Shown here: piece after piece, positions 5,351 through 58,450 of the stretch
How positions within the stretch are numbered: the stretch's first letter is position 1
How the letters are laid out: the number at the start of each line of letters is the position of its first letter
Origin: Octopus vulgaris
Taxonomy: Eukaryota
Assembly (NCBI GenBank): GCA_951406725.2
Contig: OX597814.1
Location: 178,622,001-178,686,000, forward strand
Direction: 5' to 3'
Length of the DNA stretch: 64,000 bases
Position numbers and translations under genes: made by a program
Notes under the pieces: generated by a model
What the model was told of the DNA's origin: nothing
Seen by the model: only the letters and a program-made list of their open reading frames with translations
Database searches by the model: none

Positions 5351-5599
5351 TCTATTTCTTTACTACCCACAAGGGGCTATACATACAGGGGACAAACAAG
5401 TATAGACAAACAAGGATAGACAAACGGATTAAGACGATTACATCGACCCCAGTGAGTAACTGGTACTTAATTAATCGACCCCGAAAGGATGAAAGGCAAA
5501 GTCGACCTCGGCAGAATTTGAACTCAGAACGTAACGGCAGACGAAATACGGCTACGCATTTCGCTCGGCGTGCGAACGGTTCTGCCAGCTCACCTCCTT
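5351..5599 (-). mobile_element. tRNA-derived CORE-type SINE (family B, octopus OR-like)
   Basis: Minus: GAGCTGGCAGAA..GAGTTCAAATTCTGCCGAGGTCGACTTTGCCTTTCATCCTTTCGGGGTCGAT..AAGTACCAG. Many copies in the window. Confidence 0.85.
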
Positions 5600-7649
5600 T
5601 ACTTGTCTGCTATATCTAACCTGTCATTTCATCTCGTAGAAACTCCCTCGTTTGTTCGTGCAATTATAAACATGTAGGTGGAGTTAATATTCTATGGATG
5701 AAACCTTTAACATTTTAACAAAAAACGAGCCATTGTCGTATAACTCAAAGATACTCTGAATGGTTGGTATTGATGAATCAGTCAGTTTGTTGATCTGTCT
5801 TTCAAGCCACACAAACACTCTATGAAACATCACCATCAACAACATCAGACAGCAGTGCGCAAATACCACCACCATTAACTCCAGCCAGCAGCAACACCAC
5901 CACCAAAACCGCCACCGCCAACATCAACACCAAAACCGCAGCCTCCACCACCACATAACCAACAACAACAATATTAACCTCAACAACACGAATACCACAA
6001 CCACTAGCCTTACAAGCCGTCGATCGATAAATGATGAAGAAATAAGCAGTTAACATAAACGATAATAACACAATGCATAATTCTGCTGCTGCCAAAACAT
6101 ATATTATACGATGTCGTCTGCAGAAACAATTTGTGTATTTATATATCTGTCACAGACTTCGGTTTACTGCTGTTTTTGTGTACACATGAGTTGTTGGTCT
6201 TATTAATTCTTACTAGTTTTTAAGGCGTTTGAGTAAACAAATCTTAACTAGTACGAAAAATGGTGTTAAGATGTTGCACCTAATAGCCATAGTGAAAAAC
6301 CAATATTTATTTTATTTTCCAATCGATGAGATCATATAAGCCCTTTAAAGTTAGTTGCTGCAATCGATTTCATAACATAAGCCCTTTTATGTTACATGCT
6401 AAAATCGATCTCATAATGCAAGCCCTTGTAAATCAATGCGTTTAAGCTGCATAGTATATAGCTAATGCATTAAAAACGCACGACTCCTGTAAATGAGTAG
6501 ATCCAGCATTGTACGGATATGCCTACTTATAGATGCATAAGTTCACGGGTATAGTATTGATTTTAGAGGACATATGAATAGCTGTCTTAGTTACTATAAT
6601 AATATATGTAATATCGAGGGACTATTTAAAAGTTACATTTACAAAATACATATATGCATGCATACATGACTACATACATACATTCATGTATATATGCATG
6701 CATACATATAGACATACATACATACAATCATACACAGGCATGGGCACACACACATATACGTATCTATGCGTCATACTTATGAAAACACTGCGTTAGACAC
6801 TTTAAACCAGTATTCTAGAAGAGATAAAATCGTTTATGCACATGATATTTTGTTAAAATGCAATAAACCTCGAACGTTCACTGAAATAGTCTCAACATCA
6901 GCTTACGAGAGTGACAGATGCATTTCTGCCTCGATGGGCCTGATGTTTATATTTAATAAACAAAGGATTGATACGTGAGCTACCATAGGTTTCGTGTGCA
7001 ATGACTTAGAGTAAGCTGACAGGCTTGTATAGCTGGCGTGTACTATCCTGCAGTCGATAAAGCTAATGTTAACATGGCTGTTCCCTGAGAGACGGTGAAG
7101 AAAAAAAATGAGATAAAAAAGGAAAACAAATGGGAAGAGGAAAGCTTGGATGCAAAGGGAGATAATTATTTAGTATTTCCGTCAGAAGCAAATACTAAAT
7201 AAGTTTATTTATGAATTAACGATGCATGGTAGGGTAATCAACTGGAGAAAGGTTAAAGTTTGTAAAACAGTAACCCTAATCTGGAGAGGGTGTTGTTCTC
7301 CAGTTAAATAGTAGAAATTTGTCGATTTGCACCCTGTGAAAATTTCCGATCTCGAATGCAGTCGCTCTATAGAATTCTTAGATTTAAAATGTATATAAGT
7401 TCTTTCACCTACAAAAAACATACTGCTTCATGAGCCGTTATTGCTCTACTCTGTGATGCTCCACTCTATGTGTGGTGACCACAGGTATTCCGCGATGGAC
7501 ATTCGATAGATGAATGAACTGAATAAAACGCTTCTGAATGGAGATATCAGTAACTGACAATTATGCACTTAACTGAATTATCGGGCAGAATTAGAGTGAC
7601 GTACCTTAAGACAAGGTCGTAACATTTCAATTAGTCAAACAATCCACCG

Positions 7650-45238: not shown

Positions 45239-45311
<73 letters not shown>

Positions 45312-45528
45312 AAATACTAAATTTCTAAATCTCTCGTAGAGACATGTACGGTAGTGGGGCTATAGAATGGTTGTATACTGTCAATTTAACACGAACGTGA
45401 CAGTAGGGGGGTACCCCACCGCTGTATAGCCCTAGGAAGCATCGACGCCTCCTGATGGCTTTGACACATTTTTCCCTGTGTCCTTATATACATTTACGAA
45501 GGGGAGACAAACACCCCCGGAGCTGCAT

Positions 45529-45571
45529 CTAGGGACACGTGTTTCAGGATCATTGTCCTTTATCGGCCTAG
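45529..45571 (-). ncRNA. Minimal type I hammerhead motif (core CCGAUAA, two deviations from CUGAUGA)
   Basis: CTAGG-CCGATAA-AGGA-CAATGA-TCCT-GAAA-CACGTG-TC-CCTAG. Perfect stems I and II, palindromic stem III, GUC triplet. Confidence 0.8.
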
Positions 45572-45848
45572 AGTAGCATACACCGGTCAGCTGGCGATAT
45601 TATATCTTTATTATGGGCACGATGGCCCGAATGCAGAGGGGACATTACAAGACGGGACATGGGGTACATAAAGTAAAAATAAATTATGAAATAAAGCTGA
45701 ATTATGTGTAATGATTTAGATGGAACGGCTTACGAGCCCCCCAACTCGCAGTTCCGTTTAAAATACAACTTTACATTTTACAATTACATATATTCCAGTT
45801 CAAAATACAATTTTACATTTTACAATTTTACAATTTACAATGTTACAA

Positions 45849-47210
45849 TTACATAAATTCCAGTTCTGTTGGACGTTCGTCCGTAACGTACTTTGTTAAT
45901 TCCATCTGGTCTATCACATTTGGCAAATTGTCATAACATACATAATACGTTAAATAAACCTCATCAAACATACTTTTCAATTTAGTAAATGTTCCTTTAT
46001 CTACAACTACCCCTTTCACAACGTCATCATGCAGTTTTGGGTGTAATTTAACCCTAATCAATCCTTTCCTACCTGCAAGTCTTTTTTCCACTTCTGTGTC
46101 TTTGACGTACAACACGAATACTTTCAGGTATTTTCCTACAGGTCTTTTTCCCTTTTTACAAGCATCCAACTGTTTTCTCACTTTTTTTCTCCATTCTAGG
46201 TTTACCTCTGTCTTTGTCTGTTCCTCCTTTTCTTTGCACGTTCTCTCTTCTTTTTCTTCTGTTATCTTGCTTTTGATTTTTTTCTTTTTTAGAACTTTCG
46301 GTGGTGATTCCACACTTGTTCTCTTCCTATCTTCTGTTCTTTCACCCTCTGCACTTGCACGTTCTTCTTCCATATCCTCAATTAGCTGCTCCTCCGTTTG
46401 CGCCTCCACTACTTTCTTTTCCTCCTCCAATTCTCCCTCCTCCACACACGTATCTTTCCACTCCTTCGTTACAGCCTCCGGTGCTATCGTTTTCTCCAGC
46501 GGGCACACATCCTTCATGTGGCCTCTTAATTTGCAATTATAACAGACTGGAGGTCTTCCCTCTAACACGACTCTAAGCCGTGTCTCATTAGGGAAGACCA
46601 ACTCCTCCGGGATGTTGTATAGGTCTGGCACGGTTATATGTGCCAGAACCTGTACCGCATATCCCCACCACTTAACTTCTGTTGACTTTTCCACCTTCAC
46701 CACCTCCACACTTTCCTTGCAGTTGAAAACTACTGCCGCTAATATCCTCTCCATGTTAAGTTCGGGCGAAATCCTACTAATTCTTATTCTGACTGCCCTC
46801 TTTCCGCAGTAACTAGGTAATAAAGTCCAACTTTCAGATTTCAGAATTTTTGTCGCATTCTTTCTTGCTTCATTTTCATTTTTAAAGTGTACCACCACTG
46901 TGGCATATTTCCTTCCTCTTTTGAAAAAGGTAGGTTCACCCTCAATTCCTTGCAGACATTTCTCTATTTCTTCCGTCTCTGCTACTTCTATTTTTCTTGA
47001 CGCCACACACCATGTCCTGTATGTTATCATACGTTTCTCCGCGTTGTTTTCTTCTTCTTCGGACGGTGTGACTCTCACGCAGTCACCCTCCCTCTTCAAA
47101 ATGTCGAAATATTTTTCTAAAGTCTTCTTCTCGACTACCACTTCTTCCATTTCTAGTTCACTCGCAACCAGGCCTCTGCCTGCTGCTCTCGCATACGTCT
47201 GGTCTTGCAT
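45849..47210 (-). CDS. Gag/ORF1-like nucleic-acid-binding protein with CCHC zinc knuckle (~453 aa from first ATG)
   Basis: N-terminal TYARAA motif, putative RRM-like region (YATVVVHF..E..A), RVVLEGRPPV-CYNCKLRGHMKDVC (CX2CX4HX4C), acidic/coiled region, basic PPKVLKKKKIK. The ORF track start at 47261 is a TTG. Confidence 0.85.
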   Translation of the reverse strand: MQDQTYARAAGRGLVASELEMEEVVVEKKTLEKYFDILKREGDCVRVTPSEEEENNAEKRMITYRTWCVASRKIEVAETEEIEKCLQGIEGEPTFFKRGRKYATVVVHFKNENEARKNATKILKSESWTLLPSYCGKRAVRIRISRISPELNMERILAAVVFNCKESVEVVKVEKSTEVKWWGYAVQVLAHITVPDLYNIPEELVFPNETRLRVVLEGRPPVCYNCKLRGHMKDVCPLEKTIAPEAVTKEWKDTCVEEGELEEEKKVVEAQTEEQLIEDMEEERASAEGERTEDRKRTSVESPPKVLKKKKIKSKITEEKEERTCKEKEEQTKTEVNLEWRKKVRKQLDACKKGKRPVGKYLKVFVLYVKDTEVEKRLAGRKGLIRVKLHPKLHDDVVKGVVVDKGTFTKLKSMFDEVYLTYYVCYDNLPNVIDQMELTKYVTDERPTELEFM

Positions 47211-47850
47211 TTTCAAAATCTCCAAATAAAATTCACCACGTCCTCCAGCAACGAACTCCAACTCACAACCTCTTCACAATGACGCACTCAAAACAAACAC
47301 ACCAGAATAACGACTCCAAAAAAAAATAGGTCGGCTGGTGATATTTGTCTCGACATCGTATTGTATATATCTATAATTCAGTGAAGTCTATTCACTGATT
47401 ATCAAAATAAGAAATACTAAATTTCTAAATCTCTCGTAGAGACTTGTACGGTGGTGGGGCGATAGAATGGTTGTATACTGTCAATCTAACACGAACGTGA
47501 CAGTAGGGGGGTAACTCACCGCTGTATAGCCGTAGGAAGCATCGACGCTTCCTGATGTCTCCCCTTCGTAAATATATATAAGGAAACAGGGAAAAATGTG
47601 TCAAAGCCATCAGGAGGCGTCGATGCTTCCTACGGCTATACAGCGGTGAGTTAGCCCCATACTGAAACGTTCGTGTTATATTGGCAGTATACAACCATTA
47701 TATATATATATATATATATATATTCATATATATATGTATGTATGTATGTGTGTATATGTAGAGAATGTTAGGTGAGGTGTACAGAAATTGAATATTGAGA
47801 AAAAAGTCGTCAGAATTTTGGTAAAAAATATTTTTATTTCTTCATTTTTA

Positions 47851-47890
47851 TTATTAGCGCTTTCGCTCGTTTCTCGAACTTGTCAAATAA
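47851..47890 (-). ncRNA. Minimal type I hammerhead, U3-A8 variant (copy 1)
   Basis: TTAT-TTGACAA-GTTCG-AGAAA-CGAGC-GAAA-GCGC-TA-ATAA. Confidence 0.75.
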
Positions 47891-48358
47891 AAATCTTGTG
47901 AATGTACAAACAGCTTCGTATTTATATAAAACAGATGATTTTGGGGGTGGGGTCTTAGAAGACGAGAGCATTGTTTTTGTTTTTGGGGGTGAGGTTCCAT
48001 GACAATGTAGATAGATAGAGCGAAATATAGGTAGGTAAAAAGGCTGACAGACAGATACATAGATAGGTAGAGAGAGATAGAGAGAAGGGGGAGCCCCCTT
48101 CCTATTCACCATTCATTTATTTATTTAGTCATTTGCCATTGTATTGGAAAGGGTTTAAAAATCAAAAAAAGAACAGGTATGGTGTGGTCATCACTGAAAG
48201 TCTTTTTGCTTTCTTTCTCTCTTACCCTCTCTTTTTCTTCCTTTTCTCTTTCTTTTTTCTCCTCATTCCTTCTTTGTCCCTCTTTCTTTTTCTCCTCTTT
48301 ATATATAGAATTGAAAGTCGTCAGAATTTTGGAAAAAAATCTTTTTATTTCTTCATAA

Positions 48359-48398
48359 TTATTAGCGCTTTCGCTCGTTTCTCGAACTTGTCAAATGA
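48359..48398 (-). ncRNA. Minimal type I hammerhead, U3-A8 variant (copy 2)
   Basis: TCAT-TTGACAA-GTTCG-AGAAA-CGAGC-GAAA-GCGC-TA-ATAA. Core and stems II/III are identical to copy 1. Confidence 0.7.
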
Positions 48399-48992
48399 AT
48401 TTTTGTGAATGTACAAATAGCTTCTTAATTATATAAAACATGTTTTTTGGTGGGGGAGGGTGTGCAGTTGTTTAGAAGAAGAGAACCTTGTTTTTGCTTT
48501 TTGGGGTGAGGTTCCATGACAATGTAAATAGATATATGGAAATATAGGTAGGTAAATAGGCTGATAGACGGATAGATAGGTAGAGAGAGAGAGATAGAGA
48601 GAAGGGGAGCCACACTTCCTATTCACCATTCAGTTATTTATTTAGTCATTTAACATTGTATTGGAATGGGTTTAAGGATAGTGACATCGTCAAAAGGTCA
48701 AAAAAAGAACAGGTGTGGTGTGGTTATCAGTGAAAGTCTTTTTGCTTTCTTTCTCTCTTACCCTCCTTTTTCCTTCCTTTTCTCTTTATTTCTTTTCTCC
48801 TCATTCCTTCTTCGTCCCTCTTTCTTTTTCTCCTCTTTATATATAGAATTGAAAATGTACTGTCACCCCTTTTCTTTCAAACATACAATTTTGGAGATAA
48901 TTTTTTGATGAAATGTAGTTCTGCATGAAAAAACATTAGTATAATATTCGCAAATTAAAAATTAAAATACATAAATTATATATATATATATA

Positions 48993-49699: not shown

Positions 49700-51462
49700 A
49701 CGCGAACTCTCTAACCCTTTAATTGACCTTTCCTTTCTTCCTGTCTGTCTTCCTCTCTACCTATCTCTCTCCTTCTTATTTTTCACCCTTTCTGGTTTCC
49801 TTTCCTCTCTCTCTCTCTCTCTCTCTCACTCCTCCTCATCTCTCTCACTCCTCCTCATTTCTCTCACTCCTCCTCATTTCTCTCACTGGTGTTCATGTAA
49901 AGAGTTCAGGCCACTTGAGGTCAAGGGAGGCTTTGAACAAAGCGGTCGTAGGCATCTTCACCATCTCGTCTGGCAGCTTGTTTCACGGATTCGCAACCCG
50001 GACGGAGAAAGCTCCTCTCCTTCGATTGAGATGAAATCGTCGCAGGTAGAGCTTTTCGGAATGACCCAGCAGCCGACGCTCTGGAGCAGGAGTGAAGAAC
50101 AGCTCTTTCGAGAGGTTACACTTTCCGCTTATGATGTTGTGGGCGAGAATGAGATCACCACGGCGGCGGCGTTTTTCAAGAGAATAAAGGTCGAGCGTCC
50201 TCAGCCTTTTTTCGTAGGACAAATTTTTGAGACCATGAACCATGCGGGTAGCCAGCTTCTGGACTCTTTCGAGATGCTGTATGTCTTTGAGGAGATAAGG
50301 AGAAGAGGCTTGAATCCCATACTCCAATATAGGTCTCACCAGCGTGACATAGAGTGGTAGGAATATGGCTGCTGTGAGCATTCCGAATGACCGTCGAATC
50401 AAGAACAGAATTCCGCGTGCTTTGTTGGCAGCATGGACGCACTGGGCCGAAGGCGAAAAGGAGGAATCCACCAAGATACCTAGGTCCTTTACCTGATCGG
50501 TCCTCTCCAGCAGCAGACGACCCGGCTCGAAATCAAGTTGAGTTGCAGGAGTAGAGCCGACAGGCAGATGACAGCACTTTGACACGTTTAGACACAGGTC
50601 CCAATTGTTAGACCACTTCCAAATTTGGTGGAGGCATCGACGAAGATCCTCTATATTACCGCGAGGAGCGACCAGTTTGATATCGTTGGCAAATAGAAGG
50701 GTGTGTTGCGTGAGGTCGTCGGGCAAGTCATTTATGAAGACTAAAAACAATAACGGCTCAAGCACTGAACCTTGAGGTACGCCACTGCTCGCACTGGAGA
50801 CGTCGGGCAGCGAACCATTAACTTGGACTTGGAAGGAGCGATCTGAGATGAAAGCACCAACCCATCGTATAATATCCGGATGGAAACAATATGCTTGAAG
50901 CTTGACAAGTAATAGTCGGTGGTTAACCGTGTCAAAGGCTTTGGCAAAGTCCAATAAAACGATGTCAACAGCATCACCATCATCCAGGATACGCGTCATC
51001 AATTCTTCCATTACCAGTAAGTTGGTTAAGCATGATCTCTTCGGCACGAAGCCGTGTTGGGAATCATAGATAGAGGCTGTGTTTTGGAATTGGAACAACA
51101 TACTTTTCTTGAGTATGGTTTCGAACATCTTGCTGATTATTGAAGTAAGGGAAACCGGTCGGTAGTTAAGCGGGTCTTCGCGGCTCCCTTTCTTGAAAAT
51201 AGGGCAGATTATCACTGTTCTCCAGTCCGCAGGTACAACACCCGTCGCCAATGACATATTGAATAGAAGTGTTAAAGGTCCGCAGATGACCGGAGCCAAC
51301 GCTTTGATAACCTGTGGATGTATGTCGTCAGGGCCGTGACCCTTGTTAACATCGAGGCCTTGAATAACGCATTCGACTTCGTCCCGAGTGATGACCAATC
51401 TAGGCATTGGAGGTACCGATCTATCAAATGGAGGGGGTTCACGGCCATCATCTTGTTTGAAA
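49700..51462 (-). pseudogene. 5'-truncated CR1-clade LINE: RT domain and 3' UTR, inactivated
   Basis: KGHGPDDI, PIFKKG..NYRPVSLTS, QHGF..KRSC.TNL, LDFAKAFD, GVPQGSVLEP, FAND (for FADD). TGA replaces Trp at 49983, after which NKLPDEMV..FKASLD continues to ~49893. Confidence 0.92.
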
Positions 51463-51825
51463 ATTGTTGATTTTCCAGGTAATTTTCCAGTTGACCATTG
51501 CATGGATAATACTTTGTTGCTCGGTCGAAATCTACCCAGGGGACAGTAGATATATTGTCAATGTCTAAATAATTGGGGTTTTTTTAAAAGCCTTTATAGA
51601 AATTATTTACTCTTATCATTATATTACTATTTGGATTTTTCACTCCCTTTGACAACCTAACTGTAGTGCGCATGGCAAAATTTTGGAGGGAAGATTTATG
51701 AATTCAAACGTCTATGTAGGTTTAGCCTTTGCTCACTTTCTTCAAATATTTTGATGTCGCATGGTCAGAAGGTTTGAGGTACGTAGCATTTGATAAATCT
51801 ATGATAAATCTTTTTCAATGGAAAG

Positions 51826-58187: not shown

Positions 58188-58450
58188 TTTTTTGTCTTGG
58201 GGAAAAAAGAACACTTAAGTGTGAGGAGATTGTCTTTTTGAGTGTCTGGCACCTCATTATGTGTGTAAAGTTGTTAAGATTTTGCTGTTAAAATTTGTTT
58301 CATCTTTCTTAACCAATATTAAATAAGAAGAAAATATACGCAATTTTCAATCAAAAATCAATTACTTTAAACTATGTTTTGGTGAGTATATACGGCCATC
58401 AAACAAATGTTTTTTTCTTGCCTCTTTATTTTTCTATTTATATTTTCCTA

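Follow-up and report, generated by a model that had tools for sequence, protein, structure and literature searches.

HAL1 (half-L1) and TRE5-A.2 are non-autonomous derivatives of long interspersed nuclear elements (LINEs) that carry only the first open reading frame (ORF1) and borrow ORF2 in trans (PMC5753468; PMC3159450), and the ORF1 of TRE5-A, which works in cis, binds subunits of TFIIIB in vitro (PMC3159450). Retrozymes without long terminal repeats (non-LTR retrozymes) and non-autonomous Penelope-like elements (PLEs) are laid out differently, around a hammerhead ribozyme (bioRxiv 10.64898/2026.07.22.740005, PMC8557442, PMC4209133, PMC7229834). Here we describe a 2.4-kb insert (45308-47699) in a stretch of 64,000 nt of the Octopus vulgaris genome (assembly GCA_951406725.2, contig OX597814.1, positions 178,622,001 to 178,686,000 of the forward strand), hereafter the window, which very probably consists of two nested elements, a hammerhead retrozyme as host and an ORF1-only LINE cassette within it. 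All coordinates of the element are those of the whole window, and its features are read on the minus strand.

Like the non-LTR retrozymes and non-autonomous PLEs, the host has a monomer (of ~365 nt) with a type I minimal hammerhead, occurs in tandems and with inverted arms, and uses (TA)n sites; the host is itself non-coding, and what codes for protein at this locus is a LINE derivative inserted into it. Chlamys-2_cBra, in which an upstream gag-like zinc-knuckle ORF accompanies a canonical 3' hammerhead (PMC8557442), is a precedent for a PLE with a CCHC ORF, but it is described with its own reverse transcriptase (RT) and endonuclease (EN), whereas the window element has no RT and its ORF is bracketed by a target-site duplication (TSD). 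The cassette differs from HAL1 and TRE5-A.2 in that its L1/Tx1-group ORF1 has two RRMs, a CCHC knuckle and an extra C-terminal domain, in that there are many diverged cassette lineages with no evident promoter of their own, and in that its targets adjoin TATA-like boxes of other repeats, not tRNA genes. Tx1, inserted into Tx1D, and Tx1-Mar with SINEU likewise occupy a fixed place in other transposons, form tandem stacks around a TSD and may use host transcription (PMC4494074). As described there, these elements are specific for one host family, whereas the octopus hosts differ at the nick and have an upstream TATA-like box in common; many of them, unlike the Tx1 hosts described, are hammerhead PLE derivatives.

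The insert and its empty host

Between the (TA)n tracts that flank the insert, a 17-bp duplication overlooked in the preliminary description of this DNA (47345-47329, AATATCACCAGCCGACC, and 45601-45585, AATATCGCCAGCTGACC) brackets a cassette of 1,727 nt (45602-47328) without ORF2; both copies were placed by comparing junctions at empty and filled sites. The cassette is an ORF1-only non-autonomous LINE of the HAL1/TRE5-A.2 kind, not a Penelope cargo gene, and several arguments show that it is a separately mobile LINE derivative. First, it has TSDs. Second, 5'-truncated cassettes with TSDs of their own occur not only at a host site (locus L149, 117 nt) but also where the surroundings are unrelated (L146, L167, L168). 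Third, over 207 aa its ORF1 has 34% identity (E 1.7e-35) with the ORF1 of an autonomous LINE, and its 3' tail aligns with the tails of this LINE and of a short interspersed nuclear element (SINE), being homologous, not identical, to that of the LINE. No ORF2 match was found within 1.85 kb at any of 30 loci selected by their tail.

The host is a non-LTR retrozyme of the non-autonomous PLE type, itself ordinary and non-coding. Its empty form is a non-coding monomer of ~365 nt, found in tandems with a 365-nt period, and the top 41 matches to an empty monomer (the query itself among them) are all full-length and empty. Partial tandems and inverted arms accompany the empty copies, and 16 of 27 scorable host 3' ends pass directly into (TA)n. 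Exact junction patterns gave 166 empty against 13 filled retrozymes. The two states stand side by side at several loci, and eight empty monomers were recovered at filled loci (L002, twice, L003, L004, L006, L007, L013 and L020). The preliminary description had recognised the TA flanks, inverted arm, direct repeat, hairpin, ORF and hammerhead shape, all of which are present on the minus strand, and its assignment of the repeats and hammerhead to the Penelope/retrozyme type is borne out. Its proposal that the ORF is the retrozyme's own cargo fails, as the main account, on the TSDs around the cassette, on the excess of empty monomers and on the 11 of 56 copies with the same tail that lie away from such hosts.

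In reading order, the window copy begins at its upstream landing site, a (TA)n/(TACA)n tract (47700-47760). An inverted, 5'-truncated arm of the monomer follows (47556-47699, plus strand), which is of PLE type, lacks the terminal ~54 nt and is arranged as at empty loci; 47704-47556 is 92% complementary to 45361-45509. The pseudo-LTR (47408-47560, minus strand) is a partial tandem copy of the monomer 3' end, 93% identical to 45460-45308; the direct repeat as a whole (47560-47400 against 45460-45300) spans ~155 nt, also at 93%. The 5' part of the monomer (47346-47407, minus strand) contains a hairpin (47397-47379) and a TATA-like box (TATATACA, 47369-47362), lies just before the left duplication and would act as a promoter. 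The box stands 24 nt before this duplication (47329-47345), in which an initiator-like TCA lies 30 nt past the box. Beyond the cassette and the right duplication (45585-45601), the 3' part of the monomer (45308-45584, minus strand; 94% to the empty monomer at L072) runs up to the downstream landing site, a (TA)n tract at 45244-45307.

The type I minimal hammerhead lies in this 3' part (45571-45529) and is made of stem I (CTAGG/CCTAG), stem II (AGGA/TCCT), GAAA, a palindromic ACGT loop and a UC site. Among 57 family copies the core reads CCGATGA in 50, CCGCTGA in one and CCGATAA in one, the window copy, with five unassigned. The family core (CCGAUGA) thus carries U4C, a change reported to lower hammerhead activity, and the window copy (CCGAUAA) also carries G8A, which breaks C3-G8, a core base pair of the hammerhead (PMC3088659); from its sequence, this ribozyme is probably dead. 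An Rfam scan of the window element returned no hammerhead model at E<=5 and the monomer shows no folding advantage over shuffles (z -0.84); we therefore base the ribozyme call on the anatomy of the motif and its conservation in the family. In related families (L037, L094, L095, L142, L162) the cores read TTGATAA or TTGACGA (U3 with A8, or U3 with G8), which we interpret as natural core covariation across octopus retrozyme families. Both host and ORF are represented in contigs of four sequencing runs that we guess to be of RNA, some with joints from which the cassette is missing; we did not use them as evidence of expression.

The cassette protein and its LINE relatives

The insert family has at least 126 matches at the DNA level and at least 94 at the protein level. 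The window copy encodes an intact ORF1 of 453 aa with a normal stop (45849-47210, minus strand), as the preliminary description had seen together with its CCHC motif and the missing ORF2. The AlphaFold2 model of this protein (mean pLDDT 81) begins with a tandem pair of RRM-like domains (aa 48-137 and aa 136-219; 46554-47069), followed by the zinc knuckle (aa 222-237; 46500-46547); a linker without order and a long helix then lead to a compact alpha/beta domain at the C-terminus (aa 353-441; 45888-46154). Fold searches with Foldseek and VIA-align place tandem-RRM proteins on top. The knuckle, spelled CYNCKLRGHMKDVC, is invariant in the alignment consensus; Pfam gives nothing above its cut-off for ORF1, zf-CCHC staying under it with E 0.064. 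The C-terminal domain, a candidate targeting module, is modelled at pLDDT 88-97 within the full protein, and at an unusable 44 when folded in isolation, and an atlas search gave no usable match, which does not show its fold to be new. The order RRM-RRM-CCHC and the homology to an autonomous LINE agree with the earlier classification as an L1/Tx1-type ORF1.

ORF1 is under purifying selection, with a median dN/dS of 0.19 (range 0.09-0.65; 216 pairs with dS>0.15 from 24 distinct intact ORFs) and the lowest values in the RRM/CCHC half, and not in neutral decay. Two cassette copies are hypermutated from A to G, with 164 of 171 differences of this kind in L085 (G000:C7:29256421-29257782) and 159 of 193 in L050:5375-6739. 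About one third of their sense-strand adenosines are now G and both ORFs are still open. This pattern points to an RNA stage and is what we would expect from ADAR editing before reverse transcription. A HMMER search retrieved 349 protein relatives of ORF1, and a word-index search retrieved one, from Octopus; of ten relatives looked up among the 349, five were named Octopus, one Argonauta and four carried no name. Several predicted proteins (P0036, P0042, P0065) combine this ORF1 with WD40, RGS or LDL-receptor A domains; these joins are probably gene-model fusions and may be exonisation.

The cassette ends in a 3' tail (TTGT..TGTCCC; 45602-45665, minus strand) with a hairpin (45628-45615) and an AATAAA (45612-45607). 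The autonomous LINE with the homologous tail is ~5.2 kb long and young, with 73 scored RT matches at 95-100%. Its ORF2 of 1,132 aa contains APE, RT and zf-RVT domains (Pfam on the L031 and L042 copies), and its best match in PDB is human L1 ORF2 (E 4e-65), R2 scoring E 1e-25. It is a candidate Tx1 element, from its domain layout and target specificity; protein matches to its RT are unnamed or hypothetical. It is found in the same arrays as related cassettes, and up to eight or more mixed ORF1-only cassettes are piled upstream of it (L031, L032, L120). Nearly all of 20 copies (L121-L140, e.g. G000:C7:128221816-128229815) of this LINE, which is very young, end at the same ACATGGAGGAAA-type site, ~38 nt past a TATAAAG; the latter lies in what seems to be the remnant of an old ORF1 within a presumably Helitron-like element. 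The ORF2 acting in trans on the cassette would come from an autonomous element of the L1/Tx1 group, to which ORF1 and tail tie it, and not, as first proposed, from the RT/EN of a PLE.

Other assignments of the ORF were considered and rejected. DIRS/Ngaro elements do not apply, as the element has neither RT/RNase H nor a tyrosine recombinase and the autonomous relative of the ORF is an APE-RT LINE. An autonomous LINE with several ORF1s is contradicted by the arrays, in which no unit is without a tail of its own and the units follow each other in different order at different loci. Beside a cassette with an R-type tail, a fragment at L173:330-700 resembles, by eye, the C-terminal ORF2 of a second, diverged LINE, and is a possible lead to the autonomous partner of the R-tail cassettes. 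The window also contains a separate LINE remnant (49983-51503, minus strand; an open frame of 506 aa that contains an RVT_1 domain, E 1.6e-26) and a unit of ~510 nt that is present in two diverged copies immediately upstream of the insert (47790-48600).

Target sites of the cassettes

The pattern of the window tail type has 57 exact matches, of which 56 were examined, one locus being left out and one duplicate row removed. The cassette stands directly before the hammerhead core in 36 of them, in several retrozyme/PLE families, so that the linkage of ORF and pseudo-LTR noted at this locus recurs at many others. One further copy is cut off at such a site, six are stacked on another cassette there, and two occupy a site of this kind that has no hammerhead next to it. 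In all, 45 of the 56 share one position across several hammerhead/PLE families; the other 11 are found elsewhere. Cassettes of the other tail type use unrelated hosts (a PLE 3' repeat, two promoter-like sequences and the elements that we presume to be Helitron-like, there in one case past a TATAAAG in a probable remnant of an old ORF1). At the target, relatives stack in arrays of mixed cassettes. HeT-A, a gag-only element, also stacks head to tail and uses the promoter of its neighbour; HeT-A is telomeric, whereas the octopus copies are interstitial and have TSDs.

A TATA-like box is common among these hosts. Scoring TATAWAWR with at most one mismatch 22-40 nt upstream of the insertion, we used 60 of 69 sites, having dropped three duplicate loci, four false, stacked or complex TSD calls and two sites (L090, L102) with the TATA inside the duplication. 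A box was present in 13/17, 10/11 and 7/8 target clusters at three thresholds, compared with 24% of random window positions and 1-4 of 11 clusters in shifted windows. SINEs with the same tail have it at two of 13 scorable sites (18 copies found), which is the background level. By eye, there is no common sequence at the nick across hosts. CCAAT and E2F-like motifs accompany the TATA box in several unrelated hosts, including the PLE 3' repeat. From these patterns, we lean towards the view that the cassette family is targeted to TATA-like boxes and the start sites behind them. That ORF1 is the targeting factor is a more tentative proposal, suggested by the analogy with TRE5-A ORF1 and TFIIIB and otherwise only by the contrast with the SINEs.

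The strongest competitor of start-site targeting holds that the endonuclease finds its sites in these repeats by a degenerate motif, by the bendability of an AT-rich patch or by a cruciform, transcription being incidental. We consider it rather unlikely, given the lack of a common nick sequence, the shared promoter-like motifs of unrelated hosts and the background level of the tail-sharing SINEs, and yet several observations speak for it. Tx1, Tx1-Mar and Tx1-9_AMi favour particular transposons (PMC4494074), an imperfect inverted repeat surrounds the site in the retrozyme, and the TATA window scores high on its reverse strand as well (7/11 clusters), so that what is recognised may be an AT-rich patch instead of a TATA box. 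In the ORF1 tree, cassettes with G-type tails are nested among those with R-type tails and use different hosts, and this swap of tail along with host points partly to the ORF2 partner instead of ORF1. Further points weigh against the proposed explanation, start-site targeting included: the window of the test was picked after inspection of the data; a perfect TATA match is present in 1/11 clusters and is not enriched; the box of the retrozyme sits in a long predicted stem around the hammerhead; many hosts are akin (eight clusters at the loosest threshold, seven of them with a box); the off-target copies with clear TSDs show no box; and the exact autonomous partner of the window tail type was not found, the 30 tail-selected loci having no ORF2 within 1.85 kb.

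Two observations concern the same sites. At L090, L102 and L047 the duplication is ~50 nt long, with its start a little upstream of the TATA box, which corresponds to a second nick position across the box. The SINE with the LINE 3' tail and no TATA preference is ~224 nt long and abundant (L044:3000-3760) and occurs in the window too, near 58405 (reverse-complemented; about 5,400-5,600 on the plus strand).

Origin of the composites and meaning

The copies could instead descend from a single protein-coding retrozyme, composed of cassette, hammerhead and pseudo-LTR and copied by PLE RT/EN, with most filled loci as its daughters. Some loci look as one would expect from such an element: L147, where an inverted arm carries 89 nt of cassette tail and the direct copy is truncated inside the cassette; L165/L175, where TA, inverted arm, truncated ORF, hammerhead, pseudo-LTR and TA follow each other without a left TSD; L169, where a truncated composite follows immediately on (TA)n; L019, where pieces of the composite form a partial tandem; and L094, L100 and L158, on three chromosomes, which have a hammerhead-cassette unit in common, with one deletion junction and at 91-95%. 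Several of these patterns have another explanation. The inverted arms of L112, L147, L163 and L165 end at their own target site or close to it, which a LINE nicking both arms, or twin priming, explains too; a later deletion can mimic L169; and the unit of L094, L100 and L158 can be a LINE 5' transduction because L100 ends at the cassette tail. The 166 empty monomers against 13 filled ones, the eight empty monomers showing that the host lands empty at filled loci, and the absence of a detected co-phylogeny of host and cassette make the protein-coding retrozyme improbable.

This last argument derives from a Mantel test on cassette and host distances (n=12, rho 0.15, p 0.16), which leaves out the damaged loci L015 and L019 (with both, n=14 and rho 0.004). 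The nearest neighbour of the host half is an empty monomer in 11 of 14 cases. In the window copy as well the host half is nearest to an empty monomer, and the cassette is nearest to a locus whose host is 5.8% away; its origin by independent cassette insertion is favoured but not proven. Three points count against the nested history here: the Mantel test has low power; the window copy may have arrived as a ready-made composite, as L002 is only 3.4% away in the host and 3.1% in the cassette; and no autonomous PLE with this pseudo-LTR was found, a genome-wide search not having been made. One candidate for such a PLE, an RT+GIY-YIG remnant by L027 (L027/L171), was rejected because it does not end in this repeat.

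The idea of a composite unit survives in part. Among 36 hammerhead-linked copies inspected by eye, 25 have the left host flank and the duplication, six lack them and five are complex or unclear. The six adjoin an inverted arm or (TA)n and could fit the copying of a composite RNA by a PLE; a LINE nicking both arms of an inverted pair, twin priming and later deletion fit them too. The unit common to L094, L100 and L158 shows that composites can in some cases be inherited, LINE 5' transduction being the probable route. Mostly, composites travelling as a unit are not detectable, and this is not the main account of the family. A still weaker idea is that of RNA-guided homing, in which a read-through RNA with target sequence at both ends pairs with related targets and donor-site specificity is inherited: the left TSD often ends donor-type (CCGACC) or with an extra donor tag (L110, L116, L141), but in L003, L004 and L006 the right TSD and the hammerhead agree with the empty monomer present at the locus and not with a donor, and one cassette subgroup sits on at least five dissimilar targets, so that homology probably helps only the 5' joint.

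Taken as a whole, nested parasites, TATA/start-site targeting and an ORF1 acting in cis are the likely explanation of these loci. The process would involve 1) placement of a ~365-nt retrozyme in (TA)n, as its anatomy shows, presumably by a Penelope-like RT/GIY-YIG enzyme, leaving a partial tandem and an inverted arm; 2) insertion of an ORF1-only LINE by target-primed reverse transcription, to which TSDs, truncations and homology testify, at one site 24 nt past the TATA-like box of the retrozyme and with an ORF2 presumably supplied in trans; and 3) choice of this site by position, not sequence, as the point at which TATA promoters of other repeats start transcription, with the cassette transcribed from the borrowed host promoter and later copies stacking at the same place. 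The cassette RNA would be bound in cis by ORF1 and in trans by the LINE ORF2, and reverse-transcribed at a nick near the host start site. The left junctions carry donor-type bases and extra tags, which fit RNAs starting inside the duplication. ORF1 would be kept intact as an in-cis RNA chaperone and probably as a targeting factor, as reported for TRE5-A, whose interaction with TFIIIB suggests by analogy a choice of site via the pre-initiation complex; repeated insertion would then give the mixed arrays. The fullest version, in which an octopus LINE ORF1 is a pol II counterpart of that of TRE5-A and steers in cis to TATA/start sites, satellites colonise the promoters of PLEs and retrozymes, and composites are moved by LINE or PLE machinery, is speculative, and we consider it less likely than not.

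Each component has a precedent, in ORF1-only LINEs, in Tx1 elements that target transposons and stack, in retrozymes and in a PLE with a gag-like ORF; the targeting rule is possibly new. We found in the literature neither a LINE aimed at pol II TATA/start sites nor an ORF1-only LINE in retrozymes, Repbase, most subscription papers and supplements being outside the scope of this search. A recent annotation of octopus repeats reports active L1-Tx1 and Penelope families, and its main text does not use the words 'hammerhead', 'ORF1' or 'nested' (PMC13282606); library entries for these families may exist already. Such loci will be taken in annotation for single LTR-like or PLE elements.

To our knowledge, the choice of site by non-LTR elements other than through endonuclease specificity has been little studied beyond the TRE elements of Dictyostelium. 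If the explanation proposed here is true, the octopus cassettes would be a natural LINE that reads promoter architecture and not DNA sequence, and cassettes with ORF1 and SINEs without it, which have one tail type and different targeting, would offer a direct contrast. The insertions could mark start sites in repeats. For the PLEs and retrozymes of octopus, the cassette would be both a hyperparasite that interrupts their promoters and a route by which non-coding retrozymes gain a protein cargo.

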